Assembly (NCBI RefSeq): GCF_001457595.1
Contig: NZ_LN831039.1
Coordinates: forward strand, 6,750,001-6,782,000
Direction of reading: 5' to 3'
Length of the DNA stretch: 32,000 nt
Source: Mycolicibacterium smegmatis
Lineage (GTDB): Bacteria > Actinomycetota > Actinomycetes > Mycobacteriales > Mycobacteriaceae
Shown here: positions 24,001-29,315 of the stretch, piece after piece
Layout: the number at the start of each line of letters is the position of its first letter
Numbering within the stretch: position 1 is the first letter of the stretch
Notes under the pieces: model-generated
Told to the model about the DNA's origin: nothing
Database searches by the model: none
The model's input: the letters and a program-made list of their open reading frames with translations, nothing else
Made by a program: the position numbers and the translations under genes

Positions 24001-24591
24001 ATGGCCAGTCACACCACTCAGCACCCCCGCCCGAGTACAGCCGTCACCGACGACCAGTGGCTGCAGACCTACTACCTGTTGCGCGCCGCCGTCGCCGGGG
24101 TCTGGGTGGCCGCCGCGTTCATCGTCGGCACCCAGGTGTCCACGGTCGCCGCGGTGCTGCTGCTCATCTACCCGGCGTGGGACGCGGTCGCGAACTACAT
24201 CGACGCGCAACGCACCGGCGGCCTGACCCAGAACCCCACGCAGTCGCTCAACGTGGCGGTCAGCCTGCTCACCACCGTGGCCGTCGCGATCGGCCTCGCG
24301 ATGAGCATGAACGCCGTGCTCGGCGTTTTCGGCGTGTGGGCATCCCTGTCCGGGATCTTCCAGCTCGCGACCGGTGTGCGCCGCTGGAAGGGCCATGGCG
24401 CACAGTGGGCGATGATCCTCAGCGGTGCGCAGTCCGCACTTGTCGGCGTGACATTCCTCAAGCAGGCGAACGCACCCGAGGTCCCCGGCATCGCCGACAT
24501 CGCGCCCTACGCCGCGTTCGGTGCGCTCTACTTCCTCATCTCGGCCGTGTGGCTGCTGGTCGCCGAGGCGCGCCGCCGGCTGCCGGCCTGA
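24001..24591 (+). CDS. Integral membrane protein, about 6 TM (DUF308/HdeD-like is only a guess)
   Basis: 196 aa with six hydrophobic segments and high GC3. It lies downstream of the TetR gene. Confidence 0.6.
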   Translation: MASHTTQHPRPSTAVTDDQWLQTYYLLRAAVAGVWVAAAFIVGTQVSTVAAVLLLIYPAWDAVANYIDAQRTGGLTQNPTQSLNVAVSLLTTVAVAIGLAMSMNAVLGVFGVWASLSGIFQLATGVRRWKGHGAQWAMILSGAQSALVGVTFLKQANAPEVPGIADIAPYAAFGALYFLISAVWLLVAEARRRLPA

Positions 24592-25386
24592 TCACTTCAG
24601 GCGATACAACTCCGGACGCCGGTGGCGCAGGTAGTCGACGTCGTCTTCGGTGGAAGTGGCGGTGGCCGGTGTCACCCGGCACCGCGCCACCGACACCTCG
24701 CCGCCGCATTCGACGAGCAGCTCCCCGCCTGCGTCGACCACCCTCGAACCGCCGACGAACGTCAGCCCGGCCTCGGCCCCGATGAGGTTGGAGTAGACCA
24801 GCGGAGTGCGGTTCTCCAACGCCCGCGACAGGCACGCGACACGGTGGTCGTGGTGATACGGGAACATGTTGGCCGACGAGACGACGAACAGGTCGACCCC
24901 CGAGAGCGCCAATGTGCGTGCGATCTCCGGGAATTCGACGTCGAAGCAGATCATCGGCCCGACCCGCAGCCCGTCCACCTCGATGACCTCGAGGCGGTCC
25001 CCGGTCGCGAAGGCCTCACATTCCGCACCGAACAGGTGCGTCTTGCGATACACCCCTGCCACCGCACCGGTGCGGTCGATGCACAGCAGCGAGTTGTACA
25101 CCAGATCGCCTGAGCGCTCGGCAAATCCGGTGACCACCGCGGTGTCGTGCGCGGCGGCGGCCGCGCACAGGTCGGCCACCGGCCCCGGCTCGGGGATCAT
25201 TTCGATCGCGGCGTCGGCCACGACGTCGAGTCGGTATCCGCACAGGAACAACTCGGGGAACACGACGAGGTCCGCGCCCGGGTGCTTGGCGAGCGCCGCC
25301 ACCGCACGGCGTACGTTGGCGGCGACGTCGCCGGCCACCGCGGGTTCCTGGACCACCGCCACATCGACGGTGCGCAAGTCAGTCAC
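24592..25386 (-). CDS. Carbon-nitrogen hydrolase (nitrilase-superfamily amidase)
   Basis: The Glu-Lys-Cys triad context is present: VVFPELFLCGY, YRKTHLF, MICFDVEFPE. The start is GTG at 25386. Confidence 0.85.
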   Translation of the reverse strand: MTDLRTVDVAVVQEPAVAGDVAANVRRAVAALAKHPGADLVVFPELFLCGYRLDVVADAAIEMIPEPGPVADLCAAAAAHDTAVVTGFAERSGDLVYNSLLCIDRTGAVAGVYRKTHLFGAECEAFATGDRLEVIEVDGLRVGPMICFDVEFPEIARTLALSGVDLFVVSSANMFPYHHDHRVACLSRALENRTPLVYSNLIGAEAGLTFVGGSRVVDAGGELLVECGGEVSVARCRVTPATATSTEDDVDYLRHRRPELYRLK

Positions 25387-25402
25387 TCCGTGAGGCTAGC
25401 GC

Positions 25403-26716
25403 TCAGAACTCCCGCAGCGTCTCGCGCAGGGTGTTCTGGGTGTACTCGGTGCGCACCACGCCGCGCCGCTGCAGTTCCGGGATCAGGCCGTCGGTGACCT
25501 CGATGACGTGCCTGCGGCTCACGCCCTGGTTGTGCAGCGTGATCAGGAAGCCGTCGCCACCCACCTCGTCCATCAGCCACTCCATCTCGTCGGCGACCGA
25601 CGACGGGGTGCCGCACAGCGGGTACGACGAGCAGAAATCCGCCGAATCGTAGATCAACTCGCGCAGGGTCTTGCCGGATCCGGACTGCTGGAACTTGTCG
25701 AGTGAGCCCTGCTCACCGTTGGTGGTCAGGTGCGGCAGCGTCGAGTCGAGGTCGAACTGCGAGAAGTCGATGTCGGTGATCGAGGAGAGCAGCGACAGGG
25801 TCTGCTCGGCGAACGCCTGCGACGTGGTCAAGCGGTCGCGCCGTGCCACGGCCTCCTCGGTGGTCTCACCGAGCGTCGGGATCACCAGGTACATGACCTT
25901 GATCTCGTCGGGGTTGCGGCCCTGCGCCGCGGCCCTGCCGCGGATGTCCTCGCGGTAGGCCTTCATGCCGTCGACGCCGTCGGCCAGGGTGATGATCGCG
26001 TCGGAGTGCTTGGCCGCGAAGTCACGGCCTCGCGGTGACCCGCCCGCCTGCAGGAACGTCGGGCGTCCCTGTGGGGACGGCGCGGTGTTGAGCGGGCCCC
26101 GGCACTTGTAGTACTTGCCGTGGAAGTTGATCTCGTGCACCTTCGTGAAATCGGTGTGCACGCCGCGTTCGCGGTCGATGACGACGGCGTCGGGCTCCCA
26201 CGAATCCCACAGCTGGTACACGAGATCCATGTACTCGTCGGCCATCGCGTAGCGGTCTTCGCGCGGCGGCAACTCGTCGAGGCCGAAGTTCTGCGCGGCC
26301 GCGTTCTCGGCGCTGGTGACGATGTTCCAGCCGAACCGGCCGTGTGAGATGTGGTCGATGGTCGAGCACAGACGCGCCAGCAGGAACGGCGGATACCCCA
26401 GCGTCGACAACGTGGCGACGACACCGAGATGCTGCGTCGAGGCACTGATCAACGTCGCCAGCGGTGCCGGGTCGTGTTTGGGCACCATGCCGAATGCGTG
26501 TTTGAGCACAGTCTCTTTGGTGCCGCCGTAGGCCTCGGACACCGCGAGCTTGTCCTCCATCATGATGAAGTCGAAGCAGGCGCGTTCGAGGTTCTTGGCC
26601 ATCTCGACGTAGAACTGCCCGTCCCACGGCGCACCGCCGGCCTGTTCGAACGGCCCGGTCCACAGGTCCGAGGTGAAGTTCATGAACCAGCCGAGGTGAA
26701 ACTTCTTGTCTTTCAC
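25403..26716 (-). CDS. LLM-class flavin-dependent monooxygenase, NtaA/SnaA/DszA subfamily
   Basis: The N-terminus FHLGWFMNF...W......W.......YV..A..LE.A.FDFIMMED and the 437-aa size are typical of nitrilotriacetate monooxygenase component A-like enzymes. The start is GTG at 26716. Confidence 0.85.
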   Translation of the reverse strand: MKDKKFHLGWFMNFTSDLWTGPFEQAGGAPWDGQFYVEMAKNLERACFDFIMMEDKLAVSEAYGGTKETVLKHAFGMVPKHDPAPLATLISASTQHLGVVATLSTLGYPPFLLARLCSTIDHISHGRFGWNIVTSAENAAAQNFGLDELPPREDRYAMADEYMDLVYQLWDSWEPDAVVIDRERGVHTDFTKVHEINFHGKYYKCRGPLNTAPSPQGRPTFLQAGGSPRGRDFAAKHSDAIITLADGVDGMKAYREDIRGRAAAQGRNPDEIKVMYLVIPTLGETTEEAVARRDRLTTSQAFAEQTLSLLSSITDIDFSQFDLDSTLPHLTTNGEQGSLDKFQQSGSGKTLRELIYDSADFCSSYPLCGTPSSVADEMEWLMDEVGGDGFLITLHNQGVSRRHVIEVTDGLIPELQRRGVVRTEYTQNTLRETLREF

Positions 26717-26748
26717 TGCAGTATCACTACTTTCTTGTTATCCACTTG

Positions 26749-28185
26749 TCAGGCGTTCGCGGGCTCTGGGGTTTGCTGTGAGGTTTCCTTGAGCCCGAGG
26801 CGGGCCCGGATGACGAGGCCGATGACGAACAGTGCCGCAGTGACGATGAACGGCGCCCAGTCGACCCACGGGTCGCCCGTGCGGGGCCACAGGACGTTGA
26901 CGGTCTCCACGATCACCCACACCAGCGCGAGCCACCCCGCGACGTGTCCGGCACGGCCCAGGAAGGTCGGTTCGGTGGGGTCCCAGGTGCCCCGGAGCTT
27001 GCTGATCGCCAACCCCACGATGGGGAACCCGAACGACATGAAGAAGCCTGCGGTGACGAATGTGACCAGCAGCGTATAGATCTGCTCGCTCTGGAACGGC
27101 AGGTACAGCGCGATGCCGATGGCGCCGGTGACCACGGTGGCGGTGGTCGGGGTGTTGATGCGCGGGTGCAGCCGGCTCAGGTGCCGGCTGCCCGGCAGTT
27201 CACCGTTGCGTCCGTAGGACCACACGATGCGCGACACCGCCGAACTGATCGCGACCACCGTGGCGAAGTACGCGATGACGAACAGGATCATGACGGCCTT
27301 GAAAACCGGCGCCGGGAGGTACGCGGTGAGCGTCGCCGCGACGGGATCGGCGTCGTTGACGGCACTTTCGGGCATGGCCATCAGGAAAGCGAAGCACGTG
27401 AACAGCACGACGAGTCCGACACCGATGAGGGATCCGACGATCGCCTTGGGGATGTCGCGCTTGGGCTGACCGACCTCTTCGGCCAGCGTGCTGGCGCTCT
27501 CGAAGCCGAGGAACGACCATCCGGCGAACATCACCGCGAGCACGAAAGGCGTTGCCATGAAGGCGGTGTCGGGCGGCCAGCTCACGGCGCTGCCGAGCGA
27601 GGAGACGCTGTTGACCTTGTGGAAGCACAGCAGCCAGATGGCGATGCCCACCGATCCGGTGACCTCGGCGACCAGGCACAGAAAGCCCACGATGCGCACG
27701 GCCACCCGGCCCAGCACGTTGATCAGCACCGCACCGGCGAGGATGACCATCCCCACGAACGTCATGAGTTTCTGGTTTTCCGCGTCGAGATCGAACGCGG
27801 CGGCCGCGAACAGCGCGCCACCGTAGGAGACCGCCGTCAGGGTGACCAGCAGTGTCCACATGTAGGCCCATCCGGCGAACCACCCGTAGGCCGACCCGAG
27901 CAGACGCCGCGACCACTGGTAGACCCCGCCGGCCATGGGCCACCTCGAGGCCAGCACACCGAACGTCACACCGATGAGCACCTGCCCGATCAGCACGACC
28001 ACCAGGGCCCACCAGAATCCGGGTCCGGCCGCCGCCAGTCCGAGCCCGAAGACCATGTACATGGCCACGATCGGCGAGACGAAGACGAACCCCAGCATGG
28101 CTGCCGACCACATGCTGAACTCACGTCGCATCGGTCCGGCGGCGGTGGGCGTATCCGCAGTGGTGCGGGTCGCGATGTCGTCCAC
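26749..28185 (-). CDS. APC-family permease (amino acid/organocation)
   Basis: 478 aa, about 12 TM. Motifs seen: FSMWSAAMLGFVFVSP and SRWPMAGGVYQW. GTG at 28185 with GAAGGAG 5 nt upstream. Confidence 0.85.
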   Translation of the reverse strand: MDDIATRTTADTPTAAGPMRREFSMWSAAMLGFVFVSPIVAMYMVFGLGLAAAGPGFWWALVVVLIGQVLIGVTFGVLASRWPMAGGVYQWSRRLLGSAYGWFAGWAYMWTLLVTLTAVSYGGALFAAAAFDLDAENQKLMTFVGMVILAGAVLINVLGRVAVRIVGFLCLVAEVTGSVGIAIWLLCFHKVNSVSSLGSAVSWPPDTAFMATPFVLAVMFAGWSFLGFESASTLAEEVGQPKRDIPKAIVGSLIGVGLVVLFTCFAFLMAMPESAVNDADPVAATLTAYLPAPVFKAVMILFVIAYFATVVAISSAVSRIVWSYGRNGELPGSRHLSRLHPRINTPTTATVVTGAIGIALYLPFQSEQIYTLLVTFVTAGFFMSFGFPIVGLAISKLRGTWDPTEPTFLGRAGHVAGWLALVWVIVETVNVLWPRTGDPWVDWAPFIVTAALFVIGLVIRARLGLKETSQQTPEPANA

Positions 28186-28216
28186 AGGCGCTCCTTCGGC
28201 GAGGCTCCTGCACGCG

Positions 28217-28231
28217 CAGGAACGTTTCTGT
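28217..28231. promoter_or_regulatory. LacI-type palindromic operator (proximal)
   Basis: CAGGAACGTTTCTGT is a near-palindrome around a central AACGTT. It lies 32 nt upstream of the permease start. Confidence 0.6.
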
Positions 28232-28272
28232 CGCTGAAAGGTAGGGATGGCGTGTGTCGTGAAATGGCCGCC

Positions 28273-28288
28273 ACAGTAACGTTCCTGT
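28273..28288. promoter_or_regulatory. LacI-type palindromic operator (distal)
   Basis: ACAGTAACGTTCCTGT is 14/16 self-complementary and has the same CAGnAACGTTnCTGT core as the proximal site. The centres are 57 bp apart. Confidence 0.6.
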
Positions 28289-28313
28289 TACCGCTCGCTA
28301 CAAGTGGATGACG

Positions 28314-29315
28314 CTAGCCGCGCGAGCTGGCGCGCACGACCAGATGAGCGGGCACCACCTCGTGGCGCGGCTCGGCGTTCTGTTCGATCTGGTCCACCAG
28401 CATCCGGACCGCTGCGCGTCCCATCTCCTCGGCGTGCAGTTCGACCACCGAGATGGGCACGGGCGCCAGGGCCACCGCGGCACCGTCACCGAGATTGACC
28501 AGCATGAGGTCCTCGGGAACGCGCAGCCCCAGGTCCGTCGCGGCCAGCTCCGCGGCGAGCGCGAGCTGGTCCAGCCCGACGAACAGCGCGTCGGGGCGGT
28601 CGGGGCCGTCGAGGATGTCGCGCACCGCGGCGCGGGCCGCCGCCGGGTTGAACGCACCGGCGATGCGCGCGCTGCGCGGCGCGTACCCGTGCCGCCGGCA
28701 CCTTGACACGAACTCACGCTCCACGGAGCCGATGTAGGACGCCGCGGAATCCGGCGCGATGAGCATGGGCCTGCGGGCTCCGCCGCGTTCGAGGTGGTCG
28801 AGTACGTCGCCGACCACCCCCGCCCAGTCGTTGTCGACCCAGCTCGCGGCATCCGACGCGGTGCGGCCCACGGTGCTCGCCGGCGTGCCGCGCTGCCGGG
28901 CCGACTCGACCAGCGGGTCGCCTTCGGCCGGATCGACGGCGATGAGCCCGTCGTGCGCGACGTCGAGCTGCATGGCGGCAGGCGCGACCGCGAGGAAGAA
29001 ACCCCGCTGGTTGGCCTCGATCGCCGCGCCCGCCATCACGCGCATGAAATAGTCGACGTGCCACAGGGACTCGGCGTCCACATCGCTCGGCAGCATCGCG
29101 ATCACGAGGATGCCGGTACGGCCGTTGCGCAGGGAGCGCGCCGCGACGCTCGGGCGGTACCCCAGTTCGAGGGCGATCTTGCGGACGCGCTGGCGGGTCT
29201 TCTCGGGCAGCGACCCACTGCCGTTCAACGAATCCGACACGGTCGTCGTCGACACGTTCGCGGCCAGGGCCACATCACGCAACGTGACCCTGCCTCTGCC
29301 GCGTTCACCTGCCAT
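28314..29315 (-). CDS. LacI-family transcriptional regulator
   Basis: The N-terminal HTH reads VTLRDVALAANVSTTTVSDSLNG...KTRQRV..IA.ELGYRPS.AARSL. A periplasmic-binding-protein-like domain follows. Confidence 0.9.
   Translation of the reverse strand: MAGERGRGRVTLRDVALAANVSTTTVSDSLNGSGSLPEKTRQRVRKIALELGYRPSVAARSLRNGRTGILVIAMLPSDVDAESLWHVDYFMRVMAGAAIEANQRGFFLAVAPAAMQLDVAHDGLIAVDPAEGDPLVESARQRGTPASTVGRTASDAASWVDNDWAGVVGDVLDHLERGGARRPMLIAPDSAASYIGSVEREFVSRCRRHGYAPRSARIAGAFNPAAARAAVRDILDGPDRPDALFVGLDQLALAAELAATDLGLRVPEDLMLVNLGDGAAVALAPVPISVVELHAEEMGRAAVRMLVDQIEQNAEPRHEVVPAHLVVRASSRG

Follow-up and report, generated by a model that had tools for sequence, protein, structure and literature searches.

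A candidate LacI-type layer over the GlnR-controlled operon MSMEG_6735-6733 of Mycolicibacterium smegmatis, a probable nitrogen-scavenging module

Introduction

LacI-family regulators mostly respond to sugars or nucleosides, and a member of this family that stands beside genes without sugar enzymes raises the question of what it senses and which pathway it serves. The window analysed here, a stretch of 32,000 nucleotides (nt) at 6.75-6.78 Mb of the 6.98-Mb single-contig genome of Mycolicibacterium smegmatis, contains such a case: the LacI-family gene MSMEG_6736 is followed by genes for an amino acid-polyamine-organocation (APC) superfamily permease (MSMEG_6735), a monooxygenase of the NtaA/DmoA family that depends on reduced flavin mononucleotide (FMNH2; MSMEG_6734) and a carbon-nitrogen (C-N) hydrolase of the nitrilase superfamily (MSMEG_6733). 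A preliminary description of this DNA had taken the genes for a LacI-regulated catabolic operon with twin operators. We ask here which proteins read its promoter, which of its genes belong together, and what kind of compound it is likely to serve.

Part of the answer is already in the literature. Transcriptomics, a chromatin immunoprecipitation sequencing (ChIP-seq) peak and electrophoretic mobility shift assays (EMSA) have established the place of MSMEG_6735-6733 in the GlnR regulon under nitrogen limitation (PMC3662644, PMC4222082, PMC13718301), and the literature we found on the operon assigns it no substrate. What we add is a proposed LacI-type layer of control over the GlnR box. We also report that the hydrolase is an accessory gene, that the operon is distributed patchily, in the manner of a cassette, and that its permease is linked to ureohydrolase operons. 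Our reading, to which we give a probability of roughly 0.6, is that the operon scavenges nitrogen from a small nitrogen-containing organic compound, is activated by GlnR and carries its own LacI-type switch.

Results

The genes of the window correspond to MSMEG_6736-6733, and the GlnR site of MSMEG_6735 with its flanks (about 38 nt, around 28262-28300) is letter-identical to peak 50 in Table S3 of Jenkins 2013. The site assigned there to MSMEG_6735, GGTAAC-AGGAAC-GTTACT (PMC3662644, Table S3), is thus present in the window as a box of the Gn2AC-n6-GnAAC type with the AC-n9-AC signature, and the published expression and EMSA data complete the assignment to the GlnR regulon. Comparing the wild type with the glnR mutant under nitrogen limitation gave differences of 128-fold for MSMEG_6735, 31-fold for MSMEG_6734 and 5-fold for MSMEG_6733 (PMC3662644); a microarray study of nitrogen limitation reported 19-, 63- and 6-fold for the same three genes (PMC4222082), and continuous culture under nitrogen limitation 6-fold for MSMEG_6735 (PMC4617892). 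In EMSA published in 2026, the MSMEG_6735 promoter was bound by both GlnR and MtrA (PMC13718301). MSMEG_6736 does not appear in the published GlnR differential-expression lists and goes unmentioned in the literature searched. Because the structural genes are published members of this regulon, a module for the catabolism of a nitrogen compound is favoured over a sugar operon, and the earlier view that this is not a conventional sugar operon is borne out by the transcriptomic, ChIP-seq and EMSA data.

The 128-nt gap between the LacI and permease genes holds two AACGTT-centred palindromes, 57 base pairs (bp) apart (Table 1). The pattern CAGRAACGTTMCTG gave four strand-hits in the window against 0.24 expected, a count reached in none of 100 shuffles. 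Apart from the two palindromes, the genome has no perfect CAGNAACGTTNCTG site, and thus none that might have led to a reductase or to downstream enzymes; sites with one mismatch, four against two for a control pattern, are near chance genome-wide. We aligned the LacI-permease spacers of eight Mycolicibacterium loci, namely the window and seven others, and found the distal 18 nt, TAACAGGAACGTTACTGT, and the proximal CAGRAACGTTCCTG to be invariant in 8/8 loci, with diverging sequence around them; in loci L001 and L003 the proximal site is a perfect 14-bp palindrome. The twin operators of the preliminary description therefore exist as a conserved and genome-unique pair, but the distal one coincides with the published GlnR box, so that simple control by LacI gives way to a probable dual control.

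Two features of these sites are difficult to attribute to GlnR. The proximal site, read directly, is as invariant as the distal one although neither of its strands carries an AC-n9-AC signature, and the 6-nt spacer within the distal GlnR box is the same across the eight loci, whereas the 53 GlnR sites in the literature differ in theirs (PMC3662644). Both features suggest that a second protein reads the palindromes, and MSMEG_6736, which has the two domains of the LacI/GalR family (PF00356 at residues 11-56, PF13377 at residues 173-331), would be the obvious candidate to bind the pair. Operators of the LacI family take the form of a 14-16-bp palindrome with a central CG. The predicted operators agree with it in all eight loci, both being 14-20-bp palindromes with a central CG near the promoter.

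If the conserved TAnnTT hexamer serves as the -10 element, the distal palindrome would lie near -50, an activator position, and the proximal one would occupy a repressor position at the start site. A generic sigma-70 scan returned no full promoter, as expected if a promoter is activator-dependent. The MtrA motif, a GTnAC-type repeat, would fit the distal GlnR box, which is probably also an MtrA box. Collectively, this architecture suggests a composite promoter site at which a global activator and a local repressor compete, as in the Escherichia coli rut operon.

The same spacer contains, between the palindromes and upstream of the candidate -10, a conserved block TTyCrCGACAC (28253-28264, minus strand) and, in the predicted 5' leader, an inverted repeat, TTCCTGCGCGTGCAGGAG (28205-28222, minus strand; stem CCTGC/GCAGG, 4-nt loop). 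The stem of this repeat is largely kept in the eight loci, with one-base changes in four, some of which weaken a pair, and the loop varies. The 3' half of the proximal operator doubles as the 5' arm of the repeat, which could be either an mRNA stem-loop or a third half-site.

Open reading frames on the minus strand, together with their Pfam and NCBIfam families, bear out the earlier account of four co-oriented genes separated by short gaps, which measure 32 nt between permease and monooxygenase and 16 nt between monooxygenase and hydrolase. We infer that the three structural genes form one transcript. In the NCBIfam search, the regulator, the permease and the hydrolase attained no equivalog model. 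At the far end of the operon, the stop codon of the hydrolase gene abuts that of a convergent gene for a DUF308 membrane protein (24001-24591; junction at 24591/24592), leaving no space for a terminator.

Table 1. Genes and promoter features of the MSMEG_6736-6733 locus (positions in the window)
Feature	Position	Strand	Description
LacI-family regulator, MSMEG_6736	28314-29315	minus	333 amino acids; PF00356 and PF13377 (Peripla_BP_3)
APC-superfamily permease, MSMEG_6735	26749-28185	minus	478 amino acids; AA_permease_2, PF13520; GTG start, GAAGGAG before the start
NtaA/DmoA-family FMNH2-dependent monooxygenase, MSMEG_6734 (annotated 'DszA')	25403-26716	minus	437 amino acids; TIGR03860
Nitrilase-superfamily C-N hydrolase, MSMEG_6733	24592-25386	minus	264 amino acids; PF00795; accessory gene
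Distal palindrome, ACAGGAACGTTACTGT	28273-28288	minus	within the published GlnR box GGTAAC-n6-GTTACT (box feature 28273-28291)
Candidate -10 hexamer, TACCTT	28238-28243	minus	TAnnTT in 8/8 aligned loci; inferred placement
Proximal palindrome, ACAGAAACGTTCCTG	28217-28231	minus	candidate LacI operator, about +1 to +15

The distribution of the operon sets apart a core and an accessory gene. The LacI gene lies beside the permease gene in the seven other Mycolicibacterium loci, 80-88% conserved, and both genes are always present alongside monooxygenase orthologues of at least 90% identity. Such orthologues are rare: we found them in five species representatives of the genome collection, on two metagenome contigs and in 2 of 200 other sampled genomes of the genus, and there was none at E <= 1e-150 among 400 other sampled Actinomycetota genomes. 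The outer flanks of the LacI-permease-monooxygenase unit differ in every species. The conserved core consists of the LacI regulator, the permease and the monooxygenase, and the amide-hydrolysing step appears to be an optional extra.

The C-N hydrolase had been described as a member of the operon, and in the window it is one, but it is not a conserved member. A hydrolase gene follows the monooxygenase only here, in genome G678 (85% identity) and in Mycolicibacterium vaccae (76%), which makes three of the nine orthologous operons that were readable on their downstream side, and a search of 150 other Mycobacteriaceae genomes at E <= 1e-40 gave no further match except one 38% homologue. Other homologues, at 42-50% identity, come from genomes of a different actinobacterial family, and these genomes have no copy of the monooxygenase. 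We therefore rejected the hydrolase as a faithful partner of the core. In M. litorale, an amidase-signature gene divergent from the LacI gene stands in place of the hydrolase. The protein itself belongs to the nitrilase superfamily (PF00795, 151 bits), with Glu45, Lys115, Glu122 and Cys147 (PE45LF, YRK115, E122 and MIC147FD) aligning to the catalytic residues of the Pyrococcus nitrilase. Look-ups in the ESM Atlas with the hydrolase and the permease returned generic family names only.

MSMEG_6734 is a member of the NtaA/DmoA family (TIGR03860, 421.4 bits against a cut-off of 279.7, residues 18-432). Its solved relatives (DmoA, DszA, LadA, HcbA, YtnJ, riboflavin lyase, and the nitrilotriacetate (NTA) and ethylenediaminetetraacetate (EDTA) monooxygenases) all score 267 bits or less, the highest being DmoA (267 bits) and DszA (260 bits, 5tlc), with LadA within 250-267 bits; the riboflavin lyase RcaE (5w48) reaches 211 bits and the NTA and EDTA monooxygenases 198 and 149 bits. 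The similarity to DszA, DmoA and LadA is at the level of that to paralogues in the same genome (36-39%, 250-265 bits), of which there are twelve, all at 39% identity or less. Homologues at 60-75% identity are numerous and cross phyla, occurring in Actinomycetota, Alphaproteobacteria and Binatia-like lineages; they make up a tightly conserved, separate subfamily without a solved member and, to our knowledge, without a characterised one. A tree of 166 sequences places the mycobacterial clade as sister to orthologues of 68-74% identity from a Binatia-like class. MSMEG_6734 is annotated in strain mc2155 as 'dibenzothiophene desulfurization enzyme A'. We found this 'DszA' label to be unsupported, given that the score against 5tlc is no better than those of DmoA and LadA, that the neighbours encode a permease and a C-N hydrolase, and that the gene is under GlnR control.

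The monooxygenase class had been described as two-component and the operon as lacking a flavin reductase gene, and both statements agree with our results. The window holds no PF01613 or PF03358 gene, these being the two families covered (Fre-type and nitroreductase-type reductases were not searched for), and reductases for FMN adjoin the monooxygenase genes of other bacteria: an SsuE-type FMN reductase (PF03358) lies directly upstream in four of the seven loci with orthologues of 68-74% identity, and next to homologues of 60-65% identity we found PF01613 in 12 loci and PF03358 in five. The seven loci are the closest non-mycobacterial neighbourhoods that were read, and they leave aside most of the metagenomic orthologues at 70-75%. 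Elsewhere in the M. smegmatis genome, five PF01613 and nine PF03358 genes give 14 candidate reductases. Since SsuE-type reductases adjoin the 68-74% orthologues, a reductase supplied in trans is the sensible reading for M. smegmatis. A conserved partnership between LacI regulator and monooxygenase outside the mycobacteria was also considered and rejected: a single locus (L006) has a nearby LacI gene, at 28% identity to the mycobacterial one, and the sister loci have no counterpart of it.

Neighbourhoods of farther clades include an SsuA-fold ATP-binding cassette (ABC) transporter with a TetR regulator and a PF01613 reductase, ABC transporters of the peptide/opine and polar-amino-acid types, a second luciferase-like monooxygenase, an arginase-family gene (11 loci) and DUF1989 (five loci). 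Monooxygenase homologues of alphaproteobacteria stand behind an ABC transporter with a binding protein that carries the RefSeq product name 'putative urea ABC transporter substrate-binding protein'. Plasmid NZ_CP014599 of Salipiger sp. CCB-MM3 (L243, 5506-12644) has a compact orphan cluster in which a TetR regulator gene and the three genes of a 'putative urea ABC transporter' precede a monooxygenase homologue (62.6%), followed by genes for a creatininase and for two short-chain dehydrogenases/reductases (SDRs); this cluster may share its substrate class with the mycobacterial operon. A 59.8% homologue on a Marinibacterium plasmid is set among ssuA, ssuD, a CysL-like regulator and yxeP, a sulfur-type setting. 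Neighbourhoods at about 60% identity are thus weak guides to function, and the subfamily is not uniform. The literature searched contains nothing that links guanidino compounds to this monooxygenase family.

More distant relatives were seen in other contexts. On plasmid pFiD188 of Rhodococcus fascians (L244, 9001-10305), a 52.5% homologue lies directly downstream of the cytokinin fas genes (fas4, a gene for an FAD-binding protein and one for a TIGR00730/LOG-type protein). In a metagenome-assembled genome of Mycobacterium sp. (L049, 6675-11610), two adjacent NtaA-type monooxygenase genes are followed by a fused ribBA and a major facilitator superfamily transporter, with a TetR regulator upstream.

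The permease offers a hint to the cargo. Its best NCBIfam match, the urea-carboxylase-system permease TIGR03428, scores 164 bits against a cut-off of 740, and there is no adjacent carboxylase, which places it outside that family. Its two nearest paralogues in the genome, which contains five arginase-family genes, share 44% and 38% identity with it (367 and 332 bits), and both belong to clusters that are under PucR control and also encode SDRs and an arginase-family hydrolase. Four loci of another actinobacterial family have the order arginase-permease-SDR; at least two of them add another SDR, and two a C-N hydrolase homologue. The next paralogue, at 32%, belongs to a piperidine/pyrrolidine locus just upstream of the window. 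The presence of permease paralogues in ureohydrolase operons hints at a guanidinium-, ureido- or amine-type cargo. The two paralogue clusters (L241, G000:C1:1111000-1118000; L242, G000:C1:4457000-4466000) look like orphan guanidino-compound operons in their own right, and L242 additionally encodes a CE4 deacetylase-like protein, a Rieske oxygenase and the reductase of this oxygenase.

Discussion

We propose that MSMEG_6735-6733 scavenge nitrogen under the joint control of GlnR and a LacI-type regulator. When nitrogen is limiting, GlnR binds the promoter that separates the LacI gene from the permease gene and activates MSMEG_6735-6734-6733 (PMC3662644), and this site is matched to the sequence of the window. 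In our model, the LacI-family protein would bind both AACGTT palindromes, of which one, at about -50, overlaps the box for GlnR (and probably for MtrA) and the other lies over the predicted start site; nitrogen status would govern expression, and a specific ligand would tune it. The permease would import the compound, and the monooxygenase would take FMNH2 from one of the 14 unlinked flavin reductases and hydroxylate the carbon next to nitrogen, upon which the C-N bond would break. Where the C-N hydrolase is present, which is the case in three genomes, it may then release ammonia from the resulting amide or carbamoyl product.

Several observations weigh against this reading. The case for LacI binding is made solely from the adjacency of the gene and from the shape and conservation of the palindromes. 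Nitrogen limitation induces the operon up to 128-fold with no compound added, and therefore repression by LacI cannot be absolute; it would have to be weak or leaky, overridden by GlnR, or relieved by an internal metabolite. The hydrolase is missing from five orthologous operons (one contig ends too early to tell), and its induction is only 5-6-fold. The neighbourhoods of the monooxygenase subfamily vary, from an FMN reductase alone through three kinds of ABC transporter to one clearly sulfur-type setting. Finally, the clades linked to arginase and DUF1989 are not those nearest to the mycobacterial enzyme in the 166-sequence tree, and we gave them little weight.

As to the substrate, the preliminary suggestion of an N-substituted amino acid or an amide-type organocation is plausible. 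Our own tentative choice, a lead and not a result, is that the most likely class is an N-substituted guanidine, urea or amine cation. It is tempting to go further, into territory that we regard as doubtful, and to suppose that the NtaA-type monooxygenase, by a route not described so far, oxidatively removes a carbon substituent from an N-alkylated guanidine or urea, such as methylguanidine, guanidinoacetate or a natural cation related to them, that the released guanidine or urea passes to the GlnR-controlled carboxylase or urease, and that a LacI repressor sensing a non-sugar nitrogen compound competes with GlnR (and MtrA) at one composite site.

The usual ligands of LacI-family proteins invite a different proposal, in which the substrate is an amine bearing a sugar or polyol (an Amadori compound, a glycosylamine or a ribityl-type conjugate), LacI senses the sugar part and the monooxygenase frees an aldose and an amine, as is done by RcaE, a solved member of the same family. 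At L006, genes for a LacI-family protein and a PfkB sugar kinase precede the orthologue (68% identity), and the fructoselysine transporter FrlA is an APC permease, if a weak match (30 bits). We nevertheless consider a sugar-amine unlikely: the LacI protein of L006 is only distantly similar to the mycobacterial one, homologues of that LacI and of the kinase do not recur in six sister loci (whose neighbours are only partly annotated), the mycobacterial module has no conserved kinase, isomerase or further sugar enzyme beside it, and the nearest relatives of the permease are linked to ureohydrolases rather than sugars.

It is also improbable, in our judgement, that the genes do not serve one pathway, with permease and monooxygenase forming the functional unit and the hydrolase being an unrelated passenger transcribed by read-through. 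In favour of a passenger, the hydrolase has a place in just three of the nine readable orthologous operons, its induction is well below the 19-128-fold of the permease, and homologues of it occur in genomes without the monooxygenase. However, its gene lies on the same strand 16 nt behind that of the monooxygenase and is still GlnR-dependent, the arrangement is kept in M. vaccae and G678, and the amidase-signature gene of M. litorale hints that an amide-cleaving step is wanted; moreover, another actinobacterial family clusters homologues of the hydrolase with homologues of the permease.

A further alternative accepts the nitrogen response and dispenses with LacI, leaving the palindromes to GlnR and MtrA and making MSMEG_6736 a neighbour that does not regulate. 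That the distal palindrome is a published GlnR site, that MtrA recognises a similar GTnAC repeat and binds the promoter in EMSA, and that nitrogen limitation alone suffices for strong induction all speak for it. These observations leave the proximal palindrome, which lacks the GlnR signature, and the invariant spacer of the distal box without explanation. In addition, the LacI gene stays beside the permease gene in 8/8 loci whose outer flanks differ, and the palindromes have the length and central CG of LacI-family operators. We thus rate control by GlnR and MtrA only as quite improbable. Finally, a sulfur-scavenging operon built on an organosulfur enzyme of the DszA/DmoA/SsuD kind, as the 'DszA' label implies, is very unlikely, since the standing of DmoA and DszA as top solved relatives, the Marinibacterium gene set and the SsuA-fold binding proteins that flank other homologues are outweighed by nitrogen-limitation control through GlnR with a ChIP-seq peak and EMSA, by an amino-acid-type permease and a C-N hydrolase as partners with no dszB or dszC, and by the urea-type rather than sulfonate-type names that RefSeq gives to those binding proteins.

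In the mycobacterial response to nitrogen starvation, MSMEG_6735-6733 belong to the genes with the strongest induction, and yet the monooxygenase is still labelled 'DszA'. Our analysis supplies handles on this operon in the form of a candidate private regulator with two defined predicted operators, an overlap of activator and repressor sites, and guanidino, ureido and secondary-amine cations as candidate substrates. The reaction of the monooxygenase subfamily, if found, would annotate thousands of environmental genes, and interest would rise if the substrate proved to be an N-substituted guanidine or urea that is cleaved oxidatively.

Among characterised enzymes, NtaA/NtaB and EmoA/EmoB share TIGR03860 with MSMEG_6734 and are two-component FMNH2 enzymes known to cleave N-CH2 bonds oxidatively; in contrast to NtaA and EmoA, of which the solved enzymes score low against it, MSMEG_6734 has no adjacent component B or chelate transporter and is controlled by nitrogen limitation. 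DszA, DmoA and LadA, its best solved relatives, have the same fold and cofactor system, but MSMEG_6734 differs from DszA in the absence of dszB and dszC, in its nitrogen-starvation response and in belonging to a separate subfamily at 60-75% identity. Within M. smegmatis, the operon shares the GlnR regulon with the urea/guanidine carboxylase cluster MSMEG_2184-2189, and the arginase/SDR/PucR 'guanidino' operons carry the related APC permeases described above. All of these systems release nitrogen from small nitrogen-rich compounds, the carboxylase and arginase clusters by carboxylase/deiminase or ureohydrolase chemistry under PucR regulators and the present operon with an oxygenase and a LacI-type regulator.

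The closest parallel in design is the rut system of E. coli (RutA-G and RutR), which scavenges nitrogen from pyrimidines. Both systems combine a luciferase-like FMN monooxygenase, which needs a flavin reductase in rut and probably does so here, with amide hydrolysis (predicted here) and a dedicated permease, and in rut, as we propose for MSMEG_6735-6733, transcription is switched on by a global nitrogen regulator and held in check by a local repressor. The two are not orthologous: MSMEG_6734 scores 76 bits against the RutA model, for which the cut-off is 498, and the mycobacterial operon has a LacI-type regulator where rut has a TetR-type one, an APC rather than an NCS2 permease, a nitrilase-type hydrolase, and no reductase gene that we found within it. 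The operon is therefore not a new type of system; its design mirrors that of rut, with a different set of proteins.

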